A DNA stretch of 64,000 nucleotides, taken from positions 70,153-134,152 of the forward strand of contig JACQHR010000013.1 of NCBI GenBank assembly GCA_016198905.1, read 5' to 3'. The first letter of the stretch is position 1; each line of letters begins with the position of its first letter. Below the pieces are notes generated by a model. That model was not told the origin of the DNA. It searched no databases and saw only the letters and a list, made by a program, of their open reading frames with translations. The translations under genes were made by a program, and so were the position numbers. Below are positions 6,863 through 32,378 of the stretch, piece after piece. This DNA comes from Candidatus Omnitrophota bacterium. GTDB lineage: Bacteria > Omnitrophota > Gorgyraeia > Aquiviventales > Aquiviventaceae.

Positions 6863-7624
6863 ATGCTCTTTGGCTCAATGCTCGTGCCGGTGATCGTGAT
6901 CCTCGGTTTTTGGCTCATCAACTGCGTGAAGATCTTGAACGAGTATGAACGCGGCGTCATCTTCCGGCTCGGACGCATGACGCCGGAGCCGCTCGGGCCG
7001 GGGCTGAAGCTCATCTTCTTTCCCATCGATCGGCTCGTCCGCATCAGCTTGCGCACCATCACGCTCGATGTGCCTCCGCAGGATGTCATCACCAAGGATA
7101 ATGTGTCGATCAAAGTGAACGCCGTGGTGTACTTTCGCGTGATGGAACCGAACAAGGCGATCGTCGAGGTGGAAGACTACCTCTTCGCCAGTTCCCAGAT
7201 GGCGCAGACCACACTGCGCAGCGTGCTCGGACAAGTCGAGCTCGATGAGCTTCTCGCCCACCGCGAGGCATTGAATGAGCGGCTCCAAACCCTGATCGAC
7301 AAACAGACCGCCCCGTGGGGCGTGAAAGTCTCCGCCGTCGAAATCAAACAGGTGGATTTGCCGGAGGAAATTCGCCGCGCGATGGCGCGCCAAGCCGAGG
7401 CGGAACGCGTGCGACGGGCCAAGATCATCGGCGCCGATGCCGAATTCCAGGCCGCACAAAAACTCGTCGATGCGGCTCGCCTGATGAGCGAAGCGCCCAT
7501 GTCGCTGCAGATGCGCTACCTACAGACGCTGGCGGAGATCGCGACGGAGAAGAACTCGACGATCATCTTCCCGATCCCGATCGAGCTGATCAAGCCGTTC
7601 CTCGAGAAAGCAAAGTCAAGCTAG
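6863..7624 (+). CDS. SPFH/band 7 (stomatin-like) protein
   Basis: 253 aa. [32 protein letters not shown] and [10 protein letters not shown] blocks typical of prokaryotic stomatins. Confidence 0.9.
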
Positions 7625-8379: not shown

Positions 8380-9364
8380 CGGTGGCGGGCGGCTGGGCGA
8401 AGGCGCCGATCTGCCGAAACCGCTTGTAGCGCTGCTCGAGCAATCCCTCGCTCGTCATCCCATCGGTCAATTTGAAGAAGCGCAGCAGCGACGCGCGCAA
8501 GCGTTGGGCGATAAATTCCGGATCGCGATGCGCACCCCCCAACGGCTCTTCGATCACTTCATCCACAATCCCCAACTTCAAGAGATCGGCTGAGGTCAGT
8601 TTCAGCGCCTCCGCCGCGTCGGGGGCCCGCGCGCGATCCCGCCAGAGAATCGCCGCGCACCCTTCCGGCGAGATGACCGAGTAGTACGCGTTTTCGAGCA
8701 TCGCCACCCAATCGCCAACCCCGACGCCCAACGCGCCACCCGAGCCACCCTCGCCGATGACGCAAATGTAGATCGGAATCTTCAGACGCGCCATCTCGCG
8801 CATGTTGTGGGCAATCGAATGCGCTTGCCCGCGCTCTTCGGCGCCGATCCCAGGATACGCGCCGGGGGTATCGATGAAGATCACGACCGGCAGATGAAAC
8901 TTCTGCGCCATGTCCATCAAGCGCATCGCCTTGCGATAGCCTTCGGGGTGCGCCGAGCCAAAATTGCGCATGAGGTTTTCTTTGGTGTCGCGCCCCTTTT
9001 GGTGGCCGAGGAACATGCAGGAGCGCCCTTCGAACTTAGCCAAGCCGCCGACGAGCGCGCGATCATCGCTGAAGAGCCGGTCGCCATGGAGACGCGTCAC
9101 ATCGCTGAAGAGGAGTGACACGTAATCGAGCGTGTAGGGCCGCTGAGGATGGCGGGCGAGCTGGACGCGCTGCCACGGCGTGAGCGTCGTGTAGATCTTG
9201 CGCTTGAGCTGCTCCAACTGCGTCTCGAGCCCCTTGACGATCTCGGGGTGCTTCTCGCGGTCGGCGGCTTTCTGCGCTTCCTTGAGCCGGTGCTCCAACT
9301 CCGCAATCGGTTTTTCAAAGTCGTAGCGATAGCCGTTCATGAGTCCCACCGGAGGAGCCGCCAT
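8363..9364 (-). CDS. accA: acetyl-CoA carboxylase carboxyltransferase subunit alpha
   Basis: DFEKPIAELE ..., FIDTPGAYPG and GEGGSGGALG motifs. The start could be 9397, 9364 or 9340. Confidence 0.9.
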   Translation of the reverse strand: MAAPPVGLMNGYRYDFEKPIAELEHRLKEAQKAADREKHPEIVKGLETQLEQLKRKIYTTLTPWQRVQLARHPQRPYTLDYVSLLFSDVTRLHGDRLFSDDRALVGGLAKFEGRSCMFLGHQKGRDTKENLMRNFGSAHPEGYRKAMRLMDMAQKFHLPVVIFIDTPGAYPGIGAEERGQAHSIAHNMREMARLKIPIYICVIGEGGSGGALGVGVGDWVAMLENAYYSVISPEGCAAILWRDRARAPDAAEALKLTSADLLKLGIVDEVIEEPLGGAHRDPEFIAQRLRASLLRFFKLTDGMTSEGLLEQRYKRFRQIGAFAQPPATVTPTS

Positions 9365-19299: not shown

Positions 19300-19610
19300 T
19301 TACAGCAGGACGTGATATCCCCATTCCCTGAGCAATGCTCTCGTCTTCTCAAGGTTTCGGTCTGTCGGTTTCACACCCCTGAGTTCCCAGTTAATAATCG
19401 TGTCGGGACTTACTCCAACGAGCTCTGCAAGCTCCTTAATCATGAGCCGCCGATCCATGCGGGCCTTGCGGATACGCTCGCCGAGGGTCTTGGGATGCTT
19501 CGGATATTTGGGATCAAGTCCAACGAGATTGATGTGGAGTCAAGAGTGTAGACCAAAGGATTCGGCATCACTTCGCCATCTCCGATGACCCGTTGCTTAT
19601 CTCCAAGCAT
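19300..19610 (-). pseudogene. XRE-family HTH paralog copy 2, frameshifted
   Basis: The N-terminal part (MLGDKQRVIGDGEVMPNPLVYTLDST) and the HTH part (INLVGLDPKYPKHPKTLGERIRKARMDRRLMIKELAELVGVSPDTIINWELRGVKPTDRNLEKTRALLREWGYHVLL) are in different frames. A TGA lies just upstream in the HTH frame. Confidence 0.55.
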
Positions 19611-19745: not shown

Positions 19746-20681
19746 TCAAAACTCTAGGGCGATGCCAGTCCGGATCAAATCATCGCTCACGCCGGTCAAC
19801 CCGAAGGCAGCCCCAACATGAATCATCACATGCTCCGAGGGATGGAACATCAGAATTGGCGAGAGATAGTGCGGCTGCATTTCAAACGGGCCGCCAAAGG
19901 CGCGGCTATTGCCCAGTCCGCCGAAGAGTTCCACCCCGATGGCTGCCGGTTTCCAGCGGCCGGCGAGGGTCGGCTGACCTGCCGGCAACCCATGCCTGCC
20001 ATGATGCGCCAGATGACTTGCGCTGTGATCCGCGGGATGCTCGTCATCTTCATCCTCATCTTCATGATGATGATCGCTCAAACTGTAGCGCAGGCCTAGC
20101 GCGTATCCGAAATCCGTGAAGCCGCTGCGGCGCATGTCCGTCTCGTTGATCCAGTTGAACGCCACGTTGAGCCGCCCGACGTCGCGCGAGAGAACGAGCC
20201 GGGTCTCCATGATACGTTCACGCTGATCCTCCTCCGGCGGCTCGCCCTTGCCGTCTTCCCGGCCGCTGACCTCCATCTTGAACCGCGTCTTGGGATCCAA
20301 GTCCTCGTACTCCATGTATAGCATCGGGTTAAGGAACCAGTTCTTATCCTTGAGGAGCCGGTAGCGGTTCTCCCACCGGAAGCCGGTGAATTTGCCGTAG
20401 CTGTGCGTGACATCCTCGAAGCCTTCCAGCATCACCTCGGTCGCGAACTGCTCGGTCACCCCATACTCCAATTCCAGCATGTTGGAGAAGTAGCCGCCAA
20501 GCTTCTCCTCCTCTGAGCGCTCCGCCGGCTCGGTAAAATCATTCATCACCATCAGCTCGGTCTCACCCTTCTCAACGTGGTGATTGTAGGTGACGAAGTA
20601 GATGTCATTTCCTGCCCAAGCCAACGCGGGCCCGACGACCATGCTTCCAGCAACAGCCAGTGCCACCACGCTCATCCGCAT
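19746..20681 (-). CDS. putative outer-membrane barrel with His/Asp/Glu-rich loop
   Basis: 311 aa. Signal peptide ...PALAWAG, loop SDHHHEDEDEDDEHPADHSASHLAHHGRHG, C-terminal GIALEF. GGGAGGG RBS. Confidence 0.55.
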   Translation of the reverse strand: MRMSVVALAVAGSMVVGPALAWAGNDIYFVTYNHHVEKGETELMVMNDFTEPAERSEEEKLGGYFSNMLELEYGVTEQFATEVMLEGFEDVTHSYGKFTGFRWENRYRLLKDKNWFLNPMLYMEYEDLDPKTRFKMEVSGREDGKGEPPEEDQRERIMETRLVLSRDVGRLNVAFNWINETDMRRSGFTDFGYALGLRYSLSDHHHEDEDEDDEHPADHSASHLAHHGRHGLPAGQPTLAGRWKPAAIGVELFGGLGNSRAFGGPFEMQPHYLSPILMFHPSEHVMIHVGAAFGLTGVSDDLIRTGIALEF

Positions 20682-20684
20682 CGC

Positions 20685-20876
20685 TCAGCCCTCCCTGCTG
20701 TGTGGTTTGACAAATGGGCTCTGGATGCTGGGATCGCGGGCCGCTCTGTTTTCCGGTTGCCATGCAAACATCATCACCCGCTTGCAGCGCGGGCACTTCA
20801 GCTCAAGCCCCTGGGGTGTGCGCCTGGCGATCAGGCGGCCGCAGTCGCACCGCGCCTCAATCACCGGAGTGCTCAT
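20685..20876 (-). CDS. small zinc-ribbon protein (Mu Com-like CxC...CPRC)
   Basis: 63 aa. ARCDCGRLIARRTPQGLELKCPRCKRVM resembles the Com-type zinc finger. Confidence 0.45.
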   Translation of the reverse strand: MSTPVIEARCDCGRLIARRTPQGLELKCPRCKRVMMFAWQPENRAARDPSIQSPFVKPHSREG

Positions 20877-21066
20877 TCAGGGAGTGATAATTGATGCCGT
20901 CGAAATTGGTAAGTTGGCTCAGGGCATGCTGAGCACTCCACGGCAGCACGATATCCACGTGATCGATGATCTGTCCCGCCGCCGAGCGGCGCACTCCATG
21001 GAGCATGAATTGCATGTCCTTGATGCAAAGCTTAACTTCGTCGAGCTTCAAGCGGATATCCGCCAT
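20857..21066 (-). CDS. hypothetical 69-aa protein
   Basis: Start at MADIRLKLDEV, overlapping the upstream stop as TAATG. No motif recognised. Confidence 0.4.
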   Translation of the reverse strand: MADIRLKLDEVKLCIKDMQFMLHGVRRSAAGQIIDHVDIVLPWSAQHALSQLTNFDGINYHSLNEHSGD

Positions 21067-21293
21067 TAGTGACCTGCCTGCCGTGTGCGGTTCCGTAATC
21101 CAATCCACCAATCCCCGGCACCAGGGTGAATGCTGACGAACCCCTCTTTGAAGAGCCAGCCGAGCGCCATGAGCACGGCATCCCGAGAGCACCGACGGGA
21201 TGAGGTTAACTGCTCCACAGGAACGTTGCCGGCATGCTGCTCAAGCGCGGAGAGAATCTCGCCTGCTGTCATGCTCACTTCGATGACACTCAT
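21066..21293 (-). CDS. winged-helix protein (DUF2582-like)
   Basis: MTAGEILSALEQ...AVLMALGWLFKEGFVSI pattern. Start placed at the internal Met of ORF 21066..21347. Confidence 0.5.
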   Translation of the reverse strand: MSVIEVSMTAGEILSALEQHAGNVPVEQLTSSRRCSRDAVLMALGWLFKEGFVSIHPGAGDWWIGLRNRTRQAGH

Positions 21294-21324
21294 GGATGCT
21301 GCCTCTGTATGCCCGCGCCGCACC

Positions 21325-22098
21325 CTATGGCGCCGAGGTGCCCGCATGGTTCACCAGACCCCGCAACCGTTGCCGGCCCCACGCCAGCAGGAGCCATCCC
21401 ATGCAGATGACCACCGTCACGATGGAGAACCATTTCCCGTAGAGGCCGTCCGGCGAGAAGGGCTCGGTCGCCAGATGAAACGCCTCGCTACCGGGGAAGA
21501 CGCCCGCTTCGCTCAATTCGTGAAGGGCATAGATGAAAACCTGGCCTAAGAACAAAAGCAGGAAGATGCTCGTGACCTGAAAGAACAGCTTCAGGTTGAT
21601 CAGGTGGCTGCACCGCACCCATAGCATCGCCAGGAGAGCCGTACAGAGCAGGCCCAGCCCGGCGCCTGTCAGGAAGGCGGGATCGCGCACCTGAAGGAGC
21701 ATCAGGGCGGTCTCGATCCCCTCGCGGGTGATCATCAAGACGGTAAAGAGGAATACTCCCGCGATGGCCCAGCGGGTTGAGGGCCGGGACGAGAGTGTGT
21801 GGAGTTTTTGTTCCGTCTCCTGCTTGAGATACCGTCCGTACCGCCACATCTGCATCACCAGCATGGACACGAAGCCCACGGCGATCAGGCCGAGGAGGCC
21901 TTCCCAGAGCGGATCATAGCCCCGTTGGGACAGGCCCGCTCCCAAGCCGGCGCTGGCCGCCAGCGACACCCCGATGCCCCAATAGACCGCGGGCAACAGT
22001 TGACGACGGTTGATCTTCAGGAGGTAGGCCACGATGATCGAGACGATCAGAAACGCCTCGAATCCTTCCCGTAATACGATCACGAAGGCTTGGAACAT
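21325..22098 (-). CDS. FTR1 family high-affinity iron permease
   Basis: Start at MFQAFVIVLREGFEAFL with a GAGAGGAG RBS. Two REXXE motifs (REGFE, REGIE). About 7 TM helices. Confidence 0.85.
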   Translation of the reverse strand: MFQAFVIVLREGFEAFLIVSIIVAYLLKINRRQLLPAVYWGIGVSLAASAGLGAGLSQRGYDPLWEGLLGLIAVGFVSMLVMQMWRYGRYLKQETEQKLHTLSSRPSTRWAIAGVFLFTVLMITREGIETALMLLQVRDPAFLTGAGLGLLCTALLAMLWVRCSHLINLKLFFQVTSIFLLLFLGQVFIYALHELSEAGVFPGSEAFHLATEPFSPDGLYGKWFSIVTVVICMGWLLLAWGRQRLRGLVNHAGTSAP

Positions 22099-22254
22099 TT
22101 GGTGCTCCTCTCGTTGAATGGACCTGCGATGCAGATGCGCAATAGCACACTCAATGCGGATAGGTTGGGACTGGCTTGCGGAACTGTCGTGGGTTGGGAA
22201 GGTATACAAGCCGCCCGCAACGCGGAAGATTGCAGATTGGCGGGATGGTGTGTC

Positions 22255-22530
22255 TTAGTGCGTAGGAAGCACGACACCGGAGGCATGACCATTATGCTCG
22301 ATGAATGGTCGCTTGCCTCCAGCGGTCTGGTCGGCGAACGAGGGGTGATTGGTGCGGCCGCCTGAGAGCAGGTGGGCCTTGTGGTCCAATCGAATCTTCT
22401 GGGTGGCTTCAATCTGCACGACCCGCGCATCGTGGATGGTGATCTGGACGGAGCCGAATCGGACTCCCTCAATCGCTTCCGCGATCTGCAGCAGGGTTGC
22501 TTCAGACACGACGCTCGGTTGCGCTCTCAT
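22255..22530 (-). CDS. YezD/DUF2292-like small protein
   Basis: GSVQITIHDARVVQIEATQKIRLD core. Start placed 2 nt after the fur stop. Confidence 0.55.
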   Translation of the reverse strand: MRAQPSVVSEATLLQIAEAIEGVRFGSVQITIHDARVVQIEATQKIRLDHKAHLLSGGRTNHPSFADQTAGGKRPFIEHNGHASGVVLPTH

Positions 22531-22532
22531 CG

Positions 22533-23012
22533 TTACGCCACGATCTCTTCGACGTGCAGCTCCGGTTCTTTGCGGATCGGCGTGCCGTGCTGCTTCTGGC
22601 AGCTCCCGCACAGTCCATAGAGCTTATGGGTGTGCGACAACAGGGTGTACCCGTAACGCTTCGCCGCTTGTTCTTGCATGGGTTCCCACCGCGGCTCTTG
22701 GAATTCGATGATTTCTCCACAGCGCATGCACATCAGATGATCGTGATGGGCCTTGCCGTAGGTGACTTCATAGTAGGGCGGCCCGTAGCGGAAATCGTGC
22801 TTCTCGACCAGACCGGCATCCTGCAGGAGCGTCAGGGTGCGAAACACCGTCATCCGCGACACCGAAGCGTCAATGCGTCGAACATCTTTGACGAGCTCCT
22901 CGGCGGAAAAGTGCAAATGGTTCACCGCCCGACGGAGGATGAGCTGCCGCTCCGACGTGAGCCGGATGCCTTTCTCCTTTAATACTTGGGTGACTGAAAT
23001 GAGCCTGTTCAT
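22533..23012 (-). CDS. fur: Fur family transcriptional repressor
   Basis: 159 aa. RMTVFRTLTLLQDAGLV HTH, HHDHLMCMRCG and CGSC metal sites. Confidence 0.9.
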   Translation of the reverse strand: MNRLISVTQVLKEKGIRLTSERQLILRRAVNHLHFSAEELVKDVRRIDASVSRMTVFRTLTLLQDAGLVEKHDFRYGPPYYEVTYGKAHHDHLMCMRCGEIIEFQEPRWEPMQEQAAKRYGYTLLSHTHKLYGLCGSCQKQHGTPIRKEPELHVEEIVA

Positions 23013-23036
23013 TTTACTTGATACTCAGTAACAGGT

Positions 23037-23064
23037 ATTCTATAATCATTTGGTCTATTGTCAA
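23037..23064 (-). promoter_or_regulatory. candidate fur promoter (TTGACA-16-TAGAAT) overlapping a Fur-box-like AATGATTATAGAAT
   Basis: Minus-strand read: cTTGACAatagaccaaatgattaTAGAATacc. The half-site ATAATCATT matches the Fur-box core. Confidence 0.4.
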
Positions 23065-23094
23065 GCAAAAATGCGTGTCGGGAAACACACGCCG

Positions 23095-23123
23095 TTGACA
23101 TGAGCAGAATGGCTGCCTATAGT
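23095..23123 (+). promoter_or_regulatory. candidate sigma-70 promoter for the ferritin-like gene
   Basis: TTGACA, a 17-nt spacer, then TATAGT. Confidence 0.45.
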
Positions 23124-23175: not shown

Positions 23176-23595
23176 ATGGTGCCGGACGTGAAGAAACTCT
23201 TGGTGCTGCTCAATGAAGGTTTGGAGATGGAATACGCGAGCCAAATCCAGTACCTGACTCAGGCGGCGATCACCAAAGGACCGTATGCAGAAGGATTAAT
23301 CGCCAGGTTCAAAGAAATCGCAGGTGACGAAGCGGAGCACGCCGACATCCTCCGCCAGCGAATCGTCGCGTTAGGTGGAACGCCGACGACGAAGGTCGGC
23401 GACATCCAGATTCACCCCGATTCTCTGAAAGCCGTCCAGATCAACCTGAAATACGAAAAGGACACTGTAGAGTTCTACCGCAAGATTCTCAATCTCATTT
23501 CCTCTGATCACCCCATCCTCTACGAAGCAATCGAGCATATCCTTGAGGACAGCGAAGAACACGTCGAAGAGTTGGAGCGGCTGGTAGGCAAGTGA
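23176..23595 (+). CDS. ferritin-like domain protein (bacterioferritin/Dps-like four-helix bundle)
   Basis: Start at MVPDVKK behind AAAGAGGGGG. EMEYASQIQY, GDEAEHADIL and EDSEEHVEEL di-iron-type ExxH motifs. Confidence 0.7.
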   Translation: MVPDVKKLLVLLNEGLEMEYASQIQYLTQAAITKGPYAEGLIARFKEIAGDEAEHADILRQRIVALGGTPTTKVGDIQIHPDSLKAVQINLKYEKDTVEFYRKILNLISSDHPILYEAIEHILEDSEEHVEELERLVGK

Positions 23596-23847
23596 CCGGG
23601 GTTTCTCAGAGAAACCCCAAAACCTCCCTGACCTTCCCAAGCCTCCCCCGCTTGGTTGCAGACCTCGCACTTCCCAGTTAATTACGGTATCTTCGCTCAC
23701 ACCGACGAGCGCGGCAAGCTCCTTAATCATGAGCCGCCGATCCATGCGTGCCTTGCGGATATGCTCGCCAAGCGTATGAGGCTCTTTTGGATACGCAGGA
23801 TCAAGTTCGACGAGATTAAGGTTTAGTTCGAGGAATCGTTGAAGCAT
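23371..23847 (-). CDS. XRE-family HTH paralog copy 3
   Basis: LDPAYPKEPHTLGEHIRKARMDRRLMIKELAALVGVSEDTVINWEVR. About 50 nt are near-identical to copy 2. The called 3-prime 225 nt run antisense through the hairpin and the ferritin-like gene and are probably not real. Confidence 0.5.
   Translation of the reverse strand: MLQRFLELNLNLVELDPAYPKEPHTLGEHIRKARMDRRLMIKELAALVGVSEDTVINWEVRGLQPSGGGLGRSGRFWGFSEKPRSLAYQPLQLFDVFFAVLKDMLDCFVEDGVIRGNEIENLAVELYSVLFVFQVDLDGFQRIGVNLDVADLRRRRST
23598..23618. terminator. perfect 9-bp hairpin 3 nt after the ferritin-like stop
   Basis: ggggtttct-cag-agaaacccc. No clear U tract on either strand. Confidence 0.45.
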
Positions 23848-24193
23848 GCCGATTAGGCGCGGCGATTTGTTCTAGGTGGACTTGAATCCAGTCAAAGGTT
23901 CAGAGCGAGCAGGTAGGCGTCCGGTCGTAGTCATCCAGAACGACGTCGGCAACGACGCTGCGCCCACCGTCATTGTGGCGCCGCTCACCACGAAGAGCTT
24001 CACGAAGCCCTACCCGATCAACGTCCATGTTCCCCGCGGTGTGGCCGGACTGAAAGAAAACTCCGCCGTCTTGCTTTCTCAAATCCGCACCATTGACAAG
24101 ATCCGCCTGGATCGCAAAATCGGCCACCTACCGCCCTCCCACCTCAAACAGACTGACCAGGCCATCTGCATCAGCCTCGGCCTCACGTTGTGA
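23846..24193 (+). pseudogene. mazF: MazF/PemK-family toxin interrupted by an amber codon at codon 10
   Basis: ATG at 23846 reads [35 protein letters not shown].... TAG at 23873 sits where family members have Trp (TGG). The ORF track restarts at GTG 23876. Confidence 0.65.
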
Positions 24194-24340: not shown

Positions 24341-25108
24341 CTATCGCGTTCCGTTCTCAATCCGACCAAGTAGACGCAGCATCCCATCAAGGATCGTCAG
24401 CGGATGCGGCGGGCAGCCGGGGATGTAGAGATCAACCGGCAGGAACTGTTCCGCCCCGTTATACACCTCTGGACCGTCTCGGAACGGGCCCCCGCTGATC
24501 GCACAGGCTCCGACCGCGATGACCAGCTTCGGAGATGGAACGGCCTCATAGGTTTTGAGCAGCGCCGTGCGCATGTTCTCCGTCACAGGCCCGGTCACGA
24601 TGAGTCCGTCTGCATGGCGCGGAGAAGCAACGAATTGAATGCCGAAGCGGCCCAGGTCAAAGACAACGTTGTTCAGCGCCTGCAGCTCCATCTCGCAGCC
24701 GTTGCAACTGCCGGCGCAGACCTCGCGCAACTTCAGCGAACGGCCAAAGAGCCTGCGCGTTTTTTCTTCGAGCGCCAAAACCTTGGGGATTTCATCACTC
24801 CGCAGAATGAGACTCTTGCGTGTTGTCGCAGCCAGCCTGAAGTCAGCCGTATACGTGATGGCCTGCTCGGGACAAGCCATGACGCATTCCTGGCAGAACA
24901 GGCAGCGCCCGAGATCAAGCTGCACTGTTCCATTCGCCTGAATCGCCTGAGTCGGACACGCCTCAGCGCATTGTTGACAGTTGGCCGGGCATTGCTTGCT
25001 GTCAATGGTCGGACGACCGCGAAAGCGCTCCGGGAGTTTCGCCTCTGCACCAGGAAACGCGAGCGTCCGACACCCTTGCTCAATTCGCGTAGCAATGATG
25101 TTCAGCAT
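24341..25108 (-). CDS. ehrS: Ehr small subunit: 2x[4Fe-4S] ferredoxin fused to NuoB/HycG-like domain
   Basis: CPANCQQCAEACP and CLFCQECVMACP, then CAGSCNGCEME, GACAISGG and PGCPPHP. Confidence 0.8.
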   Translation of the reverse strand: MLNIIATRIEQGCRTLAFPGAEAKLPERFRGRPTIDSKQCPANCQQCAEACPTQAIQANGTVQLDLGRCLFCQECVMACPEQAITYTADFRLAATTRKSLILRSDEIPKVLALEEKTRRLFGRSLKLREVCAGSCNGCEMELQALNNVVFDLGRFGIQFVASPRHADGLIVTGPVTENMRTALLKTYEAVPSPKLVIAVGACAISGGPFRDGPEVYNGAEQFLPVDLYIPGCPPHPLTILDGMLRLLGRIENGTR

Positions 25109-25119
25109 CGACAGGCTCC

Positions 25120-26640
25120 TTACAAATCGTGCCCGGCATACGAGAGGTTGAAGCTCTTATTGCACAACGGAAAATCCGAGATCTCACCATTCCGCAAAGC
25201 CATCGCCAGTCCCATCCAATTGTGAAATGAAGGGTCGACGATCTTGTATCGGGCGATGCCGCCCTTCGCATCCGTCATCACGACGTGCACAATTTCCCCG
25301 CGCCATCCTTCCACCATGGAGAACGCAACGCTGTCCGCCTTCATCTGCGGACACGGCACGCGCAACTCGCCTTCCGGCAGGCTGGTCAGTTGCTCCAGCA
25401 GGAATTCCAACGACCGCTCTGCCTCAAGCCAGCGGATGAGCGCCCGCGCATGCACGTCTCCGGTGTCAGCCGTCATCATGGGAAGATGGGCAAACTGATA
25501 GATGCCTGAGGGATGGTCATGCCGGATGTCACGATGGCTTCCGCATGCCCTAGCTGCCGGTCCAACAAGCCCAAGTTCCTCGCTCACTTGTTCCGTGAGC
25601 ATGCCAGTACCTTCAAACCGATCAATGACGGATGGCGTGTCAAAGAGCATGCGTGCAAATGTCCGTAACTCCTTCTGAGCCCGCTTCATCCTCTTCTCGA
25701 AATCTACCAGCAACACTCCACTGAGGTCATGCAGCACGCCACCGGCACGCAGAAAGCTTCGACCATAGCGGCTGCCGGTCAGCTCCATGAGCAGGTTGAG
25801 ACATTCGCCGCGTAGGCGCCCGAAATAGGCGGCGGCGGGTAAGAATCCCACGTCGGTGCCCAATGCTCCCAGATCGCCAACATGATTCGCCAGCCGCTCA
25901 AGCTCAAGCGCGATACCGCGTAAGGCCTGCGCTCTGGGACTGATCTGGCAGCCGCCAAGCGATTCCATGACTTCGCAGAAGGCGAGGGCATGACCGATGA
26001 CCGTATCACCGGCAATCGATTCAGCCAGGACAGACATCCGCTGTGAGAGACCGCCTGCAAGCATCCGCTCAATGCCGCGATGCTGATAGCCCAGCTGAAT
26101 CTCAAGATGCAGCACCCGCTCGCCATGACACTGGAAGCGGAAGTGGCCCGGCTCGATGATGCCGGCGTGCACCGGACCCACAGCGACCTCATGAATTTCG
26201 CTGCCCTTCACATGGAAGAAGGGGTAGCTGCCGGGGATCGGAGATGCGGCATCCTGTCCGGGCCATAGATCCGACGCGCCACGGTAGTTGCGATGATGCC
26301 TGAGAGGCTTCAACCATGGATGCCCTGCCGGCTTGATGGCAAACTGCTCAGCCAGCTCCCGCTCAAACCAATGCGCCTGGGGGCACTCAGGCGTGAGGGA
26401 TGGATACGAATCCTGTACCATCGTCCCAATCGCTGCACATTCCCCCGTCTCGTCGTGGGCCAGCAGAGCGTACACTTTCACCTGTTTCCCGTTGATCAGT
26501 CGGCCAAAGAACGCTGACAGGCGCGCACCCTCTTTTACCGCGAGAAGCACTGCGTCGCGGAATGCCGGTATCGGCAGCACCGGAACGGCTGCCTCATCAA
26601 CAGCCTGAGGATTCTTGAGGGACAGAGGCGCTGGGATCAC
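25120..26640 (-). CDS. ehrL: Ehr large subunit: NuoC + NuoD/HycE-like fusion lacking NiFe ligands
   Basis: VGPVHAGIIEPGHFRF and GPAARACGSHRDIR hallmarks. No CxxC anywhere. C-terminus is DFPLCNKSFNLSYAGHDL. Confidence 0.8.
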   Translation of the reverse strand: MIPAPLSLKNPQAVDEAAVPVLPIPAFRDAVLLAVKEGARLSAFFGRLINGKQVKVYALLAHDETGECAAIGTMVQDSYPSLTPECPQAHWFERELAEQFAIKPAGHPWLKPLRHHRNYRGASDLWPGQDAASPIPGSYPFFHVKGSEIHEVAVGPVHAGIIEPGHFRFQCHGERVLHLEIQLGYQHRGIERMLAGGLSQRMSVLAESIAGDTVIGHALAFCEVMESLGGCQISPRAQALRGIALELERLANHVGDLGALGTDVGFLPAAAYFGRLRGECLNLLMELTGSRYGRSFLRAGGVLHDLSGVLLVDFEKRMKRAQKELRTFARMLFDTPSVIDRFEGTGMLTEQVSEELGLVGPAARACGSHRDIRHDHPSGIYQFAHLPMMTADTGDVHARALIRWLEAERSLEFLLEQLTSLPEGELRVPCPQMKADSVAFSMVEGWRGEIVHVVMTDAKGGIARYKIVDPSFHNWMGLAMALRNGEISDFPLCNKSFNLSYAGHDL

Positions 26641-28085
26641 GGGGTTCCTCCGACAAGCTGTGCCGCGTGAGTGAGCGCTTCTTTCAAGCCTGGCGGCACG
26701 TAGAGACCGAGCACGAGCACCGCGATCAGCAACACCAGGGGCACGCCCACCAACAACCCGGATTCTCCTCTTACATGTGAGCTCCCGGTCACCCCAGCCA
26801 CAGGCTGCCCCTGAGCCATTGGCAGGACAATAGCCCCCATGCCAAGAAACACGACGGCAAGCAGTGCCAGATATATGGTAGCCACAACGGGGTGACCTTG
26901 GCTGACGGCGGCGTTCAGGATCGTGAATTCGCTCAGGAATAAACCGAAGGGAGGAGCGCCGGTGATCGCGAAGAATCCTCCGAGCAGCAGCGCCCCAGAC
27001 ACCGGCAGGCGGCGCAGAACGCCTCTCACTTCAGTGGCGATTTTCGTCCCATGAGCGAGGAGGATATTGCCGGCCACGAAGAATAGCAGCGCCTTAGTCA
27101 GCGAGTGATTCACTGCATGTAGCATGGCGCCATAGGCTCCTGCCCCTCCGAGGCCAACTCCCAGCGACAGCATCCCCATGTGCTCAACACTGGAGTACGC
27201 CAGCATGCGCTTGTAGTCGGATTGGCCGACGATAAACACCGCGGCGACAAAGAGCGATAACAGGCCAAACACCACAAGCAGTTCCTGGACAAACGAGGCG
27301 AGCCCTGCCGCCAGACACACCTGAAAGAGACGCAGGATGCCGAGAAACGCGCAGTTGAGCAACGCGCCTGATAACAGGGCCGATGCCGGCGACGGCGCTT
27401 CGCTGTGGGCATCCGGCAACCAGGTATGAAACGGTGCTAACCCCATCTTCGTGCCATAGCCGACCAGAAAGAAGAGGAAGCCTCCTTTCAGCCACGGGAG
27501 GTGCAGCCGGCCGGCATGGCTGATCAGCTCACTGACCAACAGGGAGAGCTGGTCTGCTCCATGATCTGAGCCTGCCAGCGCGACGAAAAACGTCCCTAAC
27601 AGCGCCAGAGCAATCCCGACGGAGCAGATGAGCAAGTACTTCCACGTGGCCTCAAGCGATCGTTGACTGTGATGAAAATAGATCAGCGGCGCGCTGGCCA
27701 GCGTGGTGCCCTCGATTGCCACCCACAGCAGCCCCAGATGCTGGCTCACGGTCACAAGGCTCATGGCTGCGAGGAACCCAAGCAAACAGCCCACGAACGT
27801 ACGATTGGAGCGGCGCGGTTCATGTTGCAGATACCCAACCGCATAGAGGGCCGCACACACGAACAGCACGCTGACCAGCGTCAAGAAGATACGGCCGAGC
27901 GCATCGACTGCGAGCCAACCGCCCAGGAGAGAGGCCGGCTGCTGATACCAGCACGAGATGACGAGCGCAAGATGAAAGACAGCGATTCCGATGAGCAGCG
28001 CCAGGCGGAGCCTGTTTGAACGCAACAAAAAAGCCACGCCTGCGCCAACCAGCGGAACAAGGACCACTCCAAGCAACATGGTCAA
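26637..28085 (-). CDS. ehrD: NuoN/M/HyfF-like proton-conducting antiporter subunit
   Basis: 482 aa, about 14 TM. WLPDAHSEAPSPASALLSG motif of the Mrp/NuoLMN family. Confidence 0.8.
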   Translation of the reverse strand: MTMLLGVVLVPLVGAGVAFLLRSNRLRLALLIGIAVFHLALVISCWYQQPASLLGGWLAVDALGRIFLTLVSVLFVCAALYAVGYLQHEPRRSNRTFVGCLLGFLAAMSLVTVSQHLGLLWVAIEGTTLASAPLIYFHHSQRSLEATWKYLLICSVGIALALLGTFFVALAGSDHGADQLSLLVSELISHAGRLHLPWLKGGFLFFLVGYGTKMGLAPFHTWLPDAHSEAPSPASALLSGALLNCAFLGILRLFQVCLAAGLASFVQELLVVFGLLSLFVAAVFIVGQSDYKRMLAYSSVEHMGMLSLGVGLGGAGAYGAMLHAVNHSLTKALLFFVAGNILLAHGTKIATEVRGVLRRLPVSGALLLGGFFAITGAPPFGLFLSEFTILNAAVSQGHPVVATIYLALLAVVFLGMGAIVLPMAQGQPVAGVTGSSHVRGESGLLVGVPLVLLIAVLVLGLYVPPGLKEALTHAAQLVGGTP

Positions 28086-28726
28086 CCCTTCAGCGTCGTG
28101 AGGTGATACGTATCAATATGATCGAATTCCCGGCTGATGTGATAGATGACGATCCCCATGATGAAGACGCCGGCGAACAGATCCAGCAGAACGCCCAGCT
28201 CCACCAGTAAGGGCATGCTCTGGACGAGGGTCAACCCAAATAGGAAAATGCCGTTCTCGAGCATCAGATACCCGAGCACCTGCGTCAGCGCTTTGGTGCG
28301 GGACACCAACACCACGAGGCTGATGAGCAGTGTGGTCATGGCTGCTGGCACCAGGAGCGATGAAGTCATGGACGGCAGGGACGGCAGCCGAGAGGACAGC
28401 ACGAACGCCACAACGGTGGCAACGGCTCCCACGAGCAGGGACGCCGTGAATCCGATGAGCGGCTCGATCTCAGCACGCATGGAACCGTCGCGCAACGTGC
28501 GCAGCAGCAGCCAGGGAAACAAGACTCCTTTGAGCGCCAGCATGCCCGCCGATAACGCAACCATATGGACCGCCAGGTCGCCCTGATGCAGCAGGAGCGG
28601 CAGGATGCTCAGTAAGACGCCTTGAAAGGCCACCGCCCGGATGCAAGCTCTGAGCCGGCTGCTGCCCAGGACAAGGAAATTCAACAGCATGGCCAGCACC
28701 AGAATCAGGTCAATGCCCTGCGCCAT
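28082..28726 (-). CDS. ehrC: HyfE/NuoK-like membrane subunit
   Basis: 214 aa, about 7 TM. 4-nt overlap with the next gene. Position equivalent to hyfE. Confidence 0.7.
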   Translation of the reverse strand: MAQGIDLILVLAMLLNFLVLGSSRLRACIRAVAFQGVLLSILPLLLHQGDLAVHMVALSAGMLALKGVLFPWLLLRTLRDGSMRAEIEPLIGFTASLLVGAVATVVAFVLSSRLPSLPSMTSSLLVPAAMTTLLISLVVLVSRTKALTQVLGYLMLENGIFLFGLTLVQSMPLLVELGVLLDLFAGVFIMGIVIYHISREFDHIDTYHLTTLKG

Positions 28727-28732
28727 AGCCGC

Positions 28733-29647
28733 CTACCTCCACACCAGCAACAGGCCGACAGCGGCCAGCACACCTGAGGTGACCAGCAGTTGCGGCACGC
28801 GGATCAAGCGAAGCCGCGCCATCGACGACTCCACGATACCGATGAGCACTGCCAGCCCCAACAGCCCGGCGACGACTATGACGAGATCCAGCCAGACTAC
28901 ACCGATGTGCACGGGCACGAGCAGCCGGACGAGCAGCACGCTGAACAGAAACAGCTTCAGCGCACTGCCGTAGAGGATGAATGCAAAATCAGGACCGCTG
29001 TGGTCGAGCACCATCACTTCATGGATCATCGTCAACTCAAGATGGGTCGTGGGATCGTCAACGGGCATGCGGGCGTTTTCCGCCAGCAGCACGAGAAAGA
29101 AACTGGCGGCTGCCAGCGCAAGCGCCGGACCGGCCGTGCGCCAGGCCTGCCCTAAGACCGGGCCGAACATTTCGGACAGTTGCACGCTGCCGGTCACTTT
29201 GGCGATTACGGCAAGCGCGACAAACAACGCCGGCTCCGCCAGGCTGGCAAACGTGACTTCGCGGCTAGCACCCATCCCTTCAAAGCTCGACCCGGTATCA
29301 AGCGCTGCGAGCACGGTGATGAAGCGGGCAACGCCGATGAGATAGGCCCAGAGCACCACGTCCCCCCAGAACGAGAGGAGCGCTGAAGGCGTTGTAAGTG
29401 GAACAAAGAGGGCTGCGGTTAGGAATGCTGCCGGCGAAACCAGCGGCCCGGCTCGGAACACCCATGACGTGGTCCGGCTGTAAACCGCACCTTTCTGCAG
29501 CAGCTTCCATAGGTCGTAGTACGGCTGCAGCACCGGGGCGCCAACGCGTCCTGTGAGGATTGCTTTTGTCTTGTGAATCACGCCTAACAGCAGCGGCGGA
29601 CAGACGAGCGCCAGGCCTAAGGACAACAGTAGTGGGATGACCGACAT
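28733..29647 (-). CDS. ehrB: NuoH/HycD/HyfC-like membrane subunit
   Basis: ORF 28733..29806. Start placed at MSVIPLLLSLG, 4 nt after the upstream stop. PYYDLWKLLQKG and EGMGASREV motifs. Confidence 0.75.
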   Translation of the reverse strand: MSVIPLLLSLGLALVCPPLLLGVIHKTKAILTGRVGAPVLQPYYDLWKLLQKGAVYSRTTSWVFRAGPLVSPAAFLTAALFVPLTTPSALLSFWGDVVLWAYLIGVARFITVLAALDTGSSFEGMGASREVTFASLAEPALFVALAVIAKVTGSVQLSEMFGPVLGQAWRTAGPALALAAASFFLVLLAENARMPVDDPTTHLELTMIHEVMVLDHSGPDFAFILYGSALKLFLFSVLLVRLLVPVHIGVVWLDLVIVVAGLLGLAVLIGIVESSMARLRLIRVPQLLVTSGVLAAVGLLLVWR

Positions 29648-29651
29648 TACC

Positions 29652-31643
29652 TCAGACCCCGAGTTTCCATACCAGCAGCACCACGAGCGTGATAAAAATG
29701 TAGAGCAGATACAACTGAACCCGGCCCTGCTGCAGCCACCGCAGACCCTCCAGGCCGCGCCGGACCTTGGCGAACAATGGCAGGAACAGGTAGGCGGTCG
29801 CCACATCAGGCGTGTGAGATGTCAGGCGTGCCGACGCGGGAAAATAGCCGGCAGGGGCCTGCTCATGGGACTGTGTTCGCAACACGCTTTGAAACAGCCT
29901 CACGAGTGGTTGCGCAAAGGATGCGGCAGTGTACTGCATGCTGGCTGCCGGAGCCGTGTAGCCACAGTCCCATGTGACCGTCTGGCTGATTGGTCGGTTC
30001 GATAGAGAGAGCCGCCGCAACACGACGAGTGCCAGCGTGATGCAGAGAAACAGTGCGGCTGTCGCGCTGACCATCATCAGGCCGGCCAACGCTGAAGCCA
30101 TTCCCTCGATGTTCAGTGACGGCGTTTCGTTGTAGATACCGCTGATCGCTGGCATCATGAATTGCACGACTCGATGAGGCCATAACCCAATCGCCAGACA
30201 GCTTCCCACAAGCACCATCATGGGGATCAGCATGGCCGGACCAGCTTCGTGAAGCGGATGAGCGCGTGATTCCCGAGGGCTCCCAAGAAACACCGTGCCG
30301 AAGGCTTTGGCAAAGCACGCCGCCGCCAAGCCGCCGATCAACGCCAGTGCTGCAATTCCCAGTCCGAGCCACATCCCGCTGCGTGTCGTGAACTCCAGAA
30401 AACCACGAAACCCGCCCACGTAGATCAGCCACTCGCTGACAAAACCATTGAATGGAGGCAGACCGCAGATGGCCATGGCTCCGACGAGAAATGTGAACGC
30501 CGTCCACGGCATCGTCTTGAGCAACCCGCCGAGCCGGTCCAGCTCCCGTGTACCCGTCGCATGGAGCACAGAGCCTGCCCCGAGGAACAGCAGCGCCTTG
30601 AACAGGCTGTGGTTGAGCACATGCAGGAGCGCTCCGCCAAATCCAAGCCAGCTCATCACCGGCTGCCCCTTGGAGTGGCCAAGCAGCCCGATGCCTAACC
30701 CTAAGGCAATGATGCCGATATTCTCGACGCTGTGGTAGGCCAGCAGTCGTTTGAGGTCATGCTGGGAAAGAGCAAACACAACACCTAACACGCCCGAGGT
30801 CATGCCAATCATGAGGAAGGTCTGACCCCACCAAGCCGGCGGCGGGCCCAGGAAAGTCAGCGTCCGCAGGATGCCGTAGATGCCGAGCTTGATCATCACG
30901 CCGGACATCACCGCAGAGACATGACTCGGCGCTGCCGGATGGGCTTCCGGCAGCCACACATGCAGCGGCATAAAGCCGGCCTTGGTACCAAACCCCACGA
31001 GCGCCAGGAGGAACAAGACTGCCGTCAAGACTGATGGCATTGAGCTTATGGCCGAAAACTGATCGAAATTCATGGAACCCGCTTGCCGACCAAGCAGCGT
31101 GAAGAGCACGAAGAGGAAGGCCGTGCCAAGATGCGTAGCCACGAGGTAGGTCCAGCCCGCTTCCCGAACCTCCTCGCGTTCATCCTCGAAGGTGACGAGG
31201 AAGAATGACGCCAGCGACATCACCTCCCAGGCCACGAGAAACAAGACGGCGTTGCGTGCGGCCACCACCAGCGCCATTGAGGCGATGAGGATGTTGAACC
31301 AGCCAAAGATTGGCCCGAGGGATTGACGCTCACCGAACGGCCTAAGATACTCGCTGCTGTACACGGCGGCCAGCGCCGATACGCCGAACACGGGTAGGAG
31401 AAACCAGGCGGTCAGCGGATCAATGGCCAGATAGAATTCGCCGTATGGCACGTCCCAGGCTGACCGGAAGGAGAACCCTGCGCTGCCCATCAGGACCTGG
31501 ATTGCAGGCGCTAAGCCTGCCAAACAGCCAACCAGTGCACCGCTAACGCCCCAGCATGTGGCAAGGCGCGAGTTGCGGCCTGCCAATACGGCCATGCCTC
31601 CACTGACGGTCAACACGCCGAGTGCAAGAAAGAAGGCGATCAT
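29652..31643 (-). CDS. ehrA: NuoL/HyfB-like proton-conducting antiporter subunit
   Basis: 663 aa. WLPEAHPAAPSHVSAVMSGVMIKLG motif. The start overlaps the upstream stop as ATGA. Confidence 0.85.
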   Translation of the reverse strand: MIAFFLALGVLTVSGGMAVLAGRNSRLATCWGVSGALVGCLAGLAPAIQVLMGSAGFSFRSAWDVPYGEFYLAIDPLTAWFLLPVFGVSALAAVYSSEYLRPFGERQSLGPIFGWFNILIASMALVVAARNAVLFLVAWEVMSLASFFLVTFEDEREEVREAGWTYLVATHLGTAFLFVLFTLLGRQAGSMNFDQFSAISSMPSVLTAVLFLLALVGFGTKAGFMPLHVWLPEAHPAAPSHVSAVMSGVMIKLGIYGILRTLTFLGPPPAWWGQTFLMIGMTSGVLGVVFALSQHDLKRLLAYHSVENIGIIALGLGIGLLGHSKGQPVMSWLGFGGALLHVLNHSLFKALLFLGAGSVLHATGTRELDRLGGLLKTMPWTAFTFLVGAMAICGLPPFNGFVSEWLIYVGGFRGFLEFTTRSGMWLGLGIAALALIGGLAAACFAKAFGTVFLGSPRESRAHPLHEAGPAMLIPMMVLVGSCLAIGLWPHRVVQFMMPAISGIYNETPSLNIEGMASALAGLMMVSATAALFLCITLALVVLRRLSLSNRPISQTVTWDCGYTAPAASMQYTAASFAQPLVRLFQSVLRTQSHEQAPAGYFPASARLTSHTPDVATAYLFLPLFAKVRRGLEGLRWLQQGRVQLYLLYIFITLVVLLVWKLGV

Positions 31644-32323
31644 GCCTGCTTGAGTTGATCCTCAACCCGTAAGAAGTGTCCGAGAATACTATCAAAACGT
31701 TCCCGTTGGCGTAATGCCTGGCGCAAACTTGTGTCCTGCAGGACGAACGCCAGCCGTGAGAGTAAGGTGAGGTGCATGCGAACCGTTGGGGTGATGAGCG
31801 TAAACAGTGTAGAAACCGGTTTGCCATCCACCGCATGAAAGTCCACCGGTTGGCGCAGAAATGCCAATGTGACCATCGGCGTAGACACGCGCAACACGAT
31901 GGGGTTGCGGACATGCGGAATCGCAATGCCTTCCCCGACGCCTGTTGAACCCAGCCGTTCACGGGCTAGCAACATCCGCAGGAGAAACGTTCGGTCAGTG
32001 TCCTTCGGCAACGGCAGTCCGGTGACCAGTTCTTTGAGCACGGTACTAATCTGCTTCCCTGGCAGGTCCTCAATGATACCGCCAAGTTCCAGCGCTCGTG
32101 TCAGCACGGGCGCGTGTGACTGAGCGCTTCCATGTCCCATGCGGAACGACTGCGCTGAGAGCCGAACACCTTCTGCCGTGGCCCACTCCAGCAATTGCGC
32201 GTGATTGAAACGGTACTGCTCATTGACTCGATGCGCAGGCAGGCCCTTATCCCGAATCCACTGGTAGAGCACGTCCTGGGAAATGTTCAGCAGTTTGGCA
32301 GCTTCACGAGCCGTGAGTTCCAT
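31640..32323 (-). CDS. HTH (excisionase/MerR-type) + PTS EIIA type-2 (PtsN-like) fusion protein
   Basis: MELTAREAAKLLNISQDVLYQWIRDKGLPAH, then the EIIA fold with GIAIPHVRNP (phospho-His context). Confidence 0.8.
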   Translation of the reverse strand: MELTAREAAKLLNISQDVLYQWIRDKGLPAHRVNEQYRFNHAQLLEWATAEGVRLSAQSFRMGHGSAQSHAPVLTRALELGGIIEDLPGKQISTVLKELVTGLPLPKDTDRTFLLRMLLARERLGSTGVGEGIAIPHVRNPIVLRVSTPMVTLAFLRQPVDFHAVDGKPVSTLFTLITPTVRMHLTLLSRLAFVLQDTSLRQALRQRERFDSILGHFLRVEDQLKQA

Positions 32324-32343
32324 GATGCACCCTTTGTCCTTAT

Positions 32344-32378
32344 ACAAACAGGGAGGTGGCACGACCCTCCCTGTTTGT
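32344..32378 (-). other. perfect 13-bp stem hairpin in the leader of the HTH-EIIA gene
   Basis: acaaacagggagg-(9 nt)-cctccctgtttgt, 20 nt upstream of the ATG at 32323. Confidence 0.5.

Follow-up and report, generated by a model that had tools for sequence, protein, structure and literature searches.

Introduction

Bacterial FTR1 permeases are usually taught as dependent on a periplasmic oxidase or copper-protein partner. A metagenome-assembled genome of Candidatus Omnitrophota raises the question of how such a permease might serve metal uptake when its operon encodes no partner of this kind, and what the small proteins encoded in its place contribute. The whole stretch of DNA that was analyzed (hereafter the window) is 64 kb long. 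The locus in question consists of seven co-oriented genes on the minus strand spanning positions 23012 down to 19746, in the order fur, DUF2292, FTR1, DUF2582 winged helix, an open reading frame (ORF) of 69 amino acids (aa), a 63-aa zinc ribbon, and a 311-aa barrel. We read this locus as a Fur-repressed operon for the uptake of a metal, most likely ferrous iron, which provides a route across both membranes and carries lineage-variable accessories, and we assign this reading a probability of about 0.6. The seven-gene arrangement of the window is a local variant and not a conserved machine.

The features of the locus are as follows (positions in the window, lengths in aa or nucleotides (nt)):

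22533–23012, minus strand: fur, 159 aa, Fur-family repressor with an HHDH motif and two CxxC motifs
22255–22530, minus strand: DUF2292 (YezD-like), 91 aa, small and cytoplasmic, 2-nt gap after fur
22099–22254, minus strand: spacer between DUF2292 and FTR1, 156 nt, its 3' end being the ribosome-binding site GAGAGGAG
21325–22098, minus strand: FTR1/EfeU-type inner-membrane permease, 257 aa
21066–21293, minus strand: DUF2582-type winged helix, 75 aa, with a GAGG ribosome-binding site
20857–21066, minus strand: 69-aa ORF, narrow orphan family, TAATG overlap with the DUF2582 gene
20685–20876, minus strand: Com-like zinc ribbon, 63 aa, 20-nt overlap with the 69-aa gene
19746–20681, minus strand: outer-membrane beta-barrel, 311 aa, 3-nt gap after the zinc ribbon, containing DHHHEDEDEDDEHPADHSASHLAHHGRHG
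23019–23033, no strand: candidate Fur operator, the 7-1-7 palindrome TGATACTCAGTAACA
23037–23064, minus strand: fur-operon promoter, TTGACA-16-TAGAAT, 11/12 consensus matches
23095–23123, plus strand: ferritin promoter, TTGACA-17-TATAGT, 11/12 consensus matches
23176–23595, plus strand: ferritin-like gene, divergent from fur (Pfam Ferritin, E = 8e-20)

An earlier note on this DNA had given the same gene order, gaps and overlaps, which were confirmed for all seven genes, and had called the locus a Fur-headed iron operon, a claim that is upheld. Both divergent promoters that it had named are present. For the ferritin-like gene the most likely start codon is ATG 23176 (MVPDVKK, preceded by GAGGGGG), in line with its relatives, and not GTG 23122. 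No paralogues of the operon genes were found elsewhere in the window.

The FTR1 Permease and Its Missing Partners

The permease is a genuine member of the FTR1/EfeU type. It matched PF03239 with 120.7 bits (cut-off 25.3; E = 1e-34) and scored 133 bits against the NCBIfam EfeU equivalog, the cut-off of which is 255. Hydropathy analysis gave seven hydrophobic segments, and the charge bias places the N-terminus outside and the C-terminus inside. The two REXXE motifs that had been noticed before are REGFE (residue 10) in transmembrane segment (TM) 1 and REGIE (residue 125) in TM4, and both are invariant among 19 homologues, in which the invariant residues include R10, E11, E14, R125, E126, E129, H193, E194, E197, and E212. 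A conserved acidic loop (residues 194–222) is predicted to be periplasmic.

Profile searches of the seven operon genes and of 13 scanned flanking ORFs recovered no EfeO (cupredoxin/M75) or EfeB (DyP peroxidase) domain and no P19/FtrA or cupredoxin partner, which bears out the absence of partners claimed by the earlier note. Neither P19/FtrA nor FtrB nor FtrD is encoded in the operon, and the 257-aa permease carries no extra FetM-type domain. The same searches showed none of the small proteins to be a ferroxidase or a periplasmic partner. Purified EfeU alone reportedly moves Fe2+ in proteoliposomes (Grosse et al. 2006, cited in PMC9174327), so that a partner-free function is plausible.

The spacer in front of FTR1 (22099–22254) has a mean column identity of 76% among three close relatives and is thus as conserved as coding sequence, and a small predicted hairpin takes in the FTR1 ribosome-binding site. 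A structured element in this spacer was considered and is unsupported, since the three sequences gave no convincing covariation. Comparison of the spacer and operon RNA with Rfam returned no known RNA or riboswitch, only a chance SECIS match (E = 0.22).

Gene Order Among FTR1 Loci

The gene neighborhood was compared among loci whose FTR1 belongs to this short (~250 aa) subfamily (46–77% identity), 80 of them from species-representative genomes and 80 from metagenomes. Closer relatives were added via exact-protein look-ups, giving 167 loci in total. A gene was counted as a neighbor if it lay within 3 kb of FTR1 on the same strand. Counted in this way, fur was near FTR1 in 48 of the 167 loci, a barrel homologue in 17, DUF2292 in 12 (where it recurs after fur), DUF2582 in two, the 69-aa gene in two, and the zinc ribbon in one, while 117 loci had none of these six neighbor types. 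The subfamily is large and has members in at least four phyla that are mostly uncultured; as a rule no partner is encoded nearby.

The DUF2582 and 69-aa genes occurred with FTR1 only in the window's own sequence and in one relative (L092, FTR1 89% identical), which has kept all genes of the window except the zinc ribbon; the latter was found with FTR1 only in the window's sequence. Given these counts and the gene content of L092, DUF2582, the 69-aa protein, and the zinc ribbon are not conserved FTR1 partners. The tight coupling of three tiny nucleic-acid-binding-looking proteins to the permease, which the earlier note had found unexplained, is therefore not borne out, and the puzzle dissolves into local gene shuffling. 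That note had also named a lack of conservation of the small ORFs as a point that would count against it; this applies by half, because the small ORFs are real genes but are not kept together with FTR1.

In another close relative (L087, FTR1 91% identical) an element has entered the gene for FTR1 at its 3' end and lengthens the protein to 316 aa; the contig then ends, so this locus is uninformative on the downstream genes. The element itself (L087, 6950–9450) has inverted terminal repeats of ~570 nt (7002–7573 and 8700–9265) and contains a 270-aa ORF.

Five arrangements were distinguished:

Arrangement A: fur, Cys-rich lipoprotein, DUF2292, 250-aa barrel, FTR1
Arrangement B: fur, HemP, 254-aa barrel, periplasmic YHS protein, FTR1
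Arrangement C (window and L092): fur, DUF2292, FTR1, DUF2582, 69-aa gene, (zinc ribbon), 311-aa barrel
Arrangement D: fur, FTR1; mostly Acidobacteriota
Arrangement E: FTR1 alone

The elements that recur across these loci are a Fur-FTR1 unit with a palindromic operator, a family of 12-stranded barrels, and small cytoplasmic proteins encoded directly after fur, a slot that is occupied by DUF2292, HemP, or the 69-aa protein. Recurrence is limited to the regulator, its operator, the barrel, and one or two of the small proteins, so the locus is a variant of a known uptake system and not a new kind of system. Arrangements A and B each encode a small secreted Cys-rich protein, neither of which is found in the window; these proteins could be periplasmic metal carriers. 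The lipoprotein of arrangement A, located between fur and DUF2292 (L007, 5783–5977; L089, 4790–5011; L098, 3120–3356; L100, 121–399), has seven conserved Cys in the pattern LC(V/K)HCNC(L/V)MPAG..P....CP.C.CG.....C and had no match in Pfam.

Fur and Its Candidate Operator

The regulator matched PF01475 in Pfam with 99.3 bits (E = 2e-28) and contains the motifs HHDH and CMRC...CGSC. In NCBIfam the top-scoring models are without exception ferric uptake regulators, with PerR, Zur, and Irr behind them, and the scores stay below the cut-offs (94 vs. 146 bits). The sequence is identical to that of MBI3996658.1 from a metagenome-assembled genome of Candidatus Omnitrophica.

Five promoter-like sites were found where 1.7 were expected, and the −35 and −10 hexamers of the fur promoter are kept in relatives. 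The Fur box proposed in the earlier note, AATGATTATAGAAT, is in the sequence, but in orthologous promoters it is unconserved beyond the −10 hexamer and was set aside on this ground. Judged by sequence features, the palindrome at 23019–23033 is the likely Fur operator in its stead. It is located 4 nt downstream of the −10 hexamer, before the start codon of fur, and is conserved in orthologous fur promoters as TGTTACTnAGTAACA in close relatives and as TGAGACTnAGTCTCA in more distant ones. The half-sites covary symmetrically (TGTTACT/AGTAACA vs. TGAGACT/AGTCTCA), and a site bound by a dimer would be expected to show such paired changes. Each half-site agrees with the classical 7-1-7 Fur half-site TGATAAT at 5/7 positions.

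The operator follows the pattern TG(A/T)(G/T)ACTnAGT(A/C)(A/T)CA, and the only exact match to the degenerate pattern TGWKACTNAGTMWCA in the window is the palindrome itself. In 1.5 Mb of related loci the operator pattern had 31 exact matches and 44 matches with at most one mismatch, compared with 0 exact matches, and 0–2 matches overall, for reversed or shuffled controls. Nearly all matches immediately precede fur or, in loci where fur does not come first, FTR1 or the barrel gene. No mention of the operator sequence was found in the literature searched; it could serve for Fur regulon prediction in the phyla of this subfamily.

The divergent ferritin arrangement is also present in L087, L092, L094, L095, and L098. 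A second promoter-like site, TTGATA-17-TATAAT (23018–23046, plus strand), is directed at the ferritin gene. Its −35 hexamer is formed by the operator palindrome, and Fur binding might therefore also affect ferritin transcription.

The Outer-Membrane Barrel

The last gene of the operon encodes a protein with a hydrophobic N-terminal signal peptide (predicted cleavage after AWA) and a C-terminal Phe. Its AlphaFold2 model, built from an alignment of 38 sequences, has 12 strands and a mean predicted local distance difference test score (pLDDT) of 80.4. The signal peptide, the even number of antiparallel strands closing the barrel, and the C-terminal aromatic residue all agree with an outer-membrane channel. 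The protein belongs to no Pfam family, the sub-threshold match being to DUF5777 (E = 0.045), and Foldseek returned generic channels only (FapF, NanC, OmpG, and COG4313). In total 495 homologues were found in Omnitrophota, Armatimonadota, Verrucomicrobiota, Elusimicrobiota, Acidobacteriota, and other phyla.

In the alignment of homologues, invariant Glu, Arg, and Met residues alternate along the barrel strands, which we read as a probable charged lumen. A loop rich in His, Asp, and Glu (residues ~201–243) lies between strands 8 and 9 and is disordered in the model at residues 205–240. At the same place the homologues carry Cys-rich CxC...CxCxHC motifs or a complete HMBD (YxCPMHP...CPxCGM), and this range of His-rich, Cys-rich, or HMBD segments marks the loop as a hot spot for metal-binding inserts. 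The family may be regarded as a candidate family of outer-membrane metal channels that is not in Pfam.

Genes for barrel homologues also occur together with Porin_O_P, FMN_bind, ApbE, Fur, and a Fe-type ATP-binding cassette (ABC) importer, and in another case with a DtxR/FeoA-type regulator. In one such locus (L002, 8000–16400) the order is 311-type barrel, Porin_O_P, FMN_bind, Aq_1264_TM, ApbE, fur, and Fe-type ABC importer; in another (L093, 1–2830) fur, the 69-aa gene, and DUF2292 are followed by a porin and FMN_bind. L002 and L093 show a second Fur-linked module within this clade, which may be an extracytoplasmic flavin-dependent route of iron reduction.

Which Metal?

PbrT, a lead transporter, is a member of the FTR1 (iron/lead transporter) superfamily. 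One may accordingly suppose that the system serves another metal (Cu, Zn, Mn, or Pb) and that the Fur-family protein is the local sensor of that metal. An FTR1 81% identical to that of the window occurs in L091 (300–9650) in the order CzcC, CzcB, CzcA, P-II, FTR1, Cu/Zn superoxide dismutase, P-type ATPase, CsoR, with no fur, so the FTR1 subfamily may not be strictly dedicated to iron. The HMBD inserts in barrel homologues and the YHS protein of arrangement B point the same way, as do the 2/7 positions at which each operator half-site differs from the classical Fur box and the scores of Fur below the equivalog cut-offs. These scores, however, still rank the ferric uptake regulators ahead of PerR, Zur, and Irr, and the HHDH motif is as in Escherichia coli Fur. 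The ferritin gene is conserved divergently beside fur, HemP, a protein of haem and iron operons, fills the slot after fur in arrangement B, and relatives of the same barrel stand beside a Fe(III)-type ABC importer and another fur. Overall another metal appears quite unlikely, and iron is favored by the Fur-type features, the conserved divergent ferritin, HemP in arrangement B, and the iron ABC genes next to a barrel relative.

The Small Proteins

None of the four small proteins has a signal peptide or a TM segment. The proposal of the earlier note to search them against profiles placed two of them in families above the Pfam cut-offs, namely DUF2292 (PF10055, 59 bits vs. a cut-off of 22) and DUF2582 (PF10771, 29.9 bits vs. 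24.2). Against the OscA equivalog the DUF2292 protein scored 46.7 bits, under the cut-off of 85, and it was not counted as OscA. The DUF2582 protein is weakly similar to the solved DUF2582-like structure 2L02 (E = 0.26); an alternative start at 21347 would give a 93-aa protein, while gene callers use the 75-aa form. No relevant reports on DUF2292 or DUF2582 were found in the literature searched.

The 69-aa family comprises nine proteins among 5.8 billion, which are 62–72% identical in the alignment. The invariant residues are MADIRLKLDEVK (the first 12), C14, K16, Q19, L22-H23-G24, D35, D38, P42-W43, L49, N54, D56-G57-I58, and L63. The ratio of non-synonymous to synonymous substitution rates (dN/dS) is 0.09–0.23, which indicates purifying selection and hence a real gene. 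No family match was obtained with the Pfam and NCBIfam profiles. The AlphaFold2 model (pLDDT 76) has three strands and one helix, and nothing significant was found for this fold in PDB and BFVD, the look-alikes (PUR repeat and CsrA) having E ≥ 0.02 and low TM-scores; the model thus does not bear out the idea of the earlier note that this protein looks like a nucleic-acid binder. Outside the window and L092 the gene is found on four contigs in the order fur, 69-aa gene, DUF2292, of which only L093 is long enough to show the genes after DUF2292. Because it is located there directly after fur and before DUF2292, the 69-aa gene tracks the Fur operon and not FTR1. A common origin of the 69-aa protein, DUF2292, and HemP, which are all short, beta-hairpin-looking proteins with His, was rejected (hhalign probabilities <1%).

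The zinc ribbon contains RCDCGRLIAR...GLELKCPRCKR, the form in its family being RCxCGRLLAR..G.ELKCPRCKR. This family has 394 representative clusters (E ≤ 1e-3), and the motif is found in 30 of 30 aligned sequences. The match of the window's protein to Pfam Zn_ribbon_Com (16.1 bits) is below the cut-off of 22.9, and 12 of the 30 family members match this model, with a best E-value of 2.9e-6. PHROG 6417, annotated as translational regulator, was matched with E = 1.4e-5. In another locus (L177, 164–629) a family member (P0252) joins an N-terminus like that of the window's DUF2582 protein (MSMAEVSLMAGEILSGLKQ...) to a Com-like zinc ribbon; its gene follows two operator copies and precedes a gene starting with a signal-peptide-like sequence. 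A further predicted protein (P0250) of 7228 aa has 23 repeats of the Com-like zinc-ribbon motif.

This likeness to Com and to translational regulators raises the alternative that the small proteins form a second regulatory layer, in which the zinc ribbon activates translation of the barrel as phage Mu Com does for mom, with the winged helix and/or the 69-aa protein as modulators of Fur or of transcription. Such a layer would suit the winged-helix nature of DUF2582 and the position of the zinc-ribbon gene immediately upstream of a gene for a secreted protein in both the window and L177. We nevertheless regard it as rather improbable. The RNA around the barrel start (20630–20760) folds no better than shuffled sequences (z = −0.25), with no occluding hairpin, and a Com/mom-type mRNA hairpin at this site is thereby unsupported. 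The barrel gene has a strong, exposed GGGAGGG ribosome-binding site, L092 has its barrel arranged in the same way but lacks a zinc ribbon, and the score against the Pfam Com model is under the cut-off.

Another explanation is an insertion. According to this explanation DUF2582, the 69-aa gene, and the zinc ribbon would be a lineage-specific insertion between FTR1 and the barrel, co-transcribed with them and without a role in uptake. Their counts of 2/167 and 1/167 loci fit it, and in arrangements A and B the barrel is directly upstream of FTR1, with at most the YHS gene between them. The nearest annotated relatives of the zinc ribbon are phage Com-type regulators, and a 174-nt direct repeat (77% identity; 19367–19540 and 23654–23827) brackets the ferritin gene and the fur operon. 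Against this, the 69-aa gene is confined to Fur-headed operons, in which it has five different contexts, a relative of the zinc ribbon lies behind the two operator copies in L177, and the overlapping starts and stops suggest coupled translation. The other small proteins had no PHROG match, and the sole result from PADLOC was a weak JetB2 match for the DUF2582 protein. On balance we consider the insertion somewhat unlikely. A phage or defence origin of the small genes, which would rest on the single PHROG match and the JetB2 match, was likewise set aside.

Proposed Mechanism

The uptake operon that we propose would work as follows. When iron is plentiful, a Fur dimer would bind the palindrome at 23019–23033, as its position, symmetry, and conservation suggest, and because the palindrome lies between the −10 hexamer and the start codon of fur, the bound dimer would block the whole seven-gene unit including fur itself. 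When iron is scarce the operon would be expressed. The 12-stranded barrel would then let metal in through the lumen lined by invariant Glu, Arg, and Met, and the His/Asp/Glu-rich loop between strands 8 and 9 may hold the metal on the periplasmic side. From there the 7-TM FTR1 would take the metal at its acidic loop (residues 194–222) and carry it through the inner membrane with its two REXXE motifs. No separate ferroxidase, cupredoxin, or P19 is encoded in the operon; the hand-over may be performed by the barrel loop, and in relatives by the Cys-rich lipoprotein or the periplasmic YHS protein in its place.

The four small proteins are predicted to be cytoplasmic and would not be constant components of the transporter. 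Like HemP in other relatives, DUF2292 and the 69-aa protein would be members of a class of very small proteins whose genes come right after fur, whereas the DUF2582 winged helix and the Com-like zinc ribbon appear to be sporadic additions. By analogy with FeoA and FeoC alongside FeoB, the small proteins are most likely regulators or accessories that handle iron or modulate the permease.

Several points weigh against this uptake operon as a reading of the locus. The metal, the direction of transport, and the binding of Fur are all things that we infer, and the periplasmic position of the His-rich loop, deduced from strand parity, depends on an orientation taken from a predicted model. Members of the barrel family are also encoded in unrelated contexts that lack FTR1, some of which have to do with metals. 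That the system is specific for iron is uncertain, because the 81%-identical FTR1 stands in a Czc/CsoR context and because HMBD and YHS are typical of copper systems. The zinc-ribbon gene has no obvious ribosome-binding site and is missing from the closest complete relative, the 89%-identical L092. Finally, the DNA analyzed comprises 64 kb, and a partner gene could lie elsewhere in the genome.

A bolder version of the uptake reading may be formulated as a partner-independent class of FTR1, in which a metal-loop barrel would replace the ferroxidase or P19; the proteins encoded after fur (DUF2292, the 69-aa protein, and HemP) would act as iron acceptors, permease gates, or modulators of Fur; and a Fur lineage with a TGAGACTnAGTCTCA-type operator would extend across Omnitrophota, Planctomycetota, Acidobacteriota, and Gemmatimonadota. 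We consider this version unlikely.

Comparison with Known Systems

EfeUOB (E. coli and Bacillus subtilis; FepABC in Staphylococcus aureus) resembles the locus in its 7-TM FTR1/EfeU permease with two REXXE motifs and in its Fur-type iron control. The window differs in that EfeO and EfeB are absent, a barrel and small cytoplasmic proteins are encoded instead, fur heads the operon, and the score of the permease is far under the cut-off of the EfeU equivalog. P19-cFtr1 (Campylobacter), FetMP (E. coli F11), and FtrABCD (Bordetella and Brucella), which are listed in PMC9174327, have the permease family in common with the window, whereas P19/FtrA, the FtrB cupredoxin, the FtrD ferredoxin, and the periplasmic N-terminal domain of FetM are absent from it. 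Yeast Ftr1p-Fet3p shares the REXXE motifs of TM1 and TM4 as well as the acidic extracytoplasmic loop 6; in contrast, no multicopper ferroxidase is encoded near the FTR1 of the window. The solo cFTR1 of Synechocystis is an FTR1 permease without an adjacent partner gene, but the FTR1 gene of the window belongs to an operon that starts with fur and also encodes a dedicated outer-membrane barrel and small proteins.

FeoABC is similar by analogy only, as a metal permease co-transcribed with the tiny cytoplasmic FeoA and the winged-helix FeoC; no homology was detected, and FeoB is a GTPase-coupled transporter. HemP (PF10636) and OscA/YezD (DUF2292) are, as in the window, tiny proteins at the head of nutrient-uptake operons, although the DUF2292 protein of the window falls short of the OscA cut-off. 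Phage Mu Com has, like the zinc ribbon of the window, a four-cysteine ribbon with CxC...CPRCKR and a similar length; the window differs by its sub-threshold Pfam score, by the lack of a phage context, and by the lack of an occluding hairpin at the downstream gene.

Two neighbors of the FTR1 subfamily recur, namely a Fur repressor that has its own operator and a barrel of no classified family whose loop gathers metal-binding inserts. The tiny Fur-linked proteins, including the nine-member orphan family, provide a set for follow-up in iron homeostasis.

Flanking Region

The flanks of the operon contain an MMPL/LolA-like/DUF1302 cluster, an ArsR regulator, a MazF toxin, and a group-4 hydrogenase-like cluster. 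The copies of the 174-nt direct repeat are paralogous small genes of the XRE type encoding a helix-turn-helix (HTH) protein (MDRRLMIKELA.LVGVS.DT.INWE.RG). The ORF of the upstream copy runs antisense into the 3' end of the ferritin gene, and in L092 an HTH_3 gene is located after the barrel. Just beyond the iron locus there is a MazF/PemK-type toxin gene (23876–24193, plus strand; Pfam E = 1e-28), for which no antitoxin gene was recognized. It is followed by a complex-I-like/group-4 [NiFe]-hydrogenase-type cluster (24341–32362, minus strand) with a ferredoxin-NuoB fusion, a NuoCD-like large subunit, antiporter-like subunits, and a NuoH-like subunit. This cluster is at most a weak hint at an anaerobic lifestyle, in which Fe2+ would need no oxidation step.

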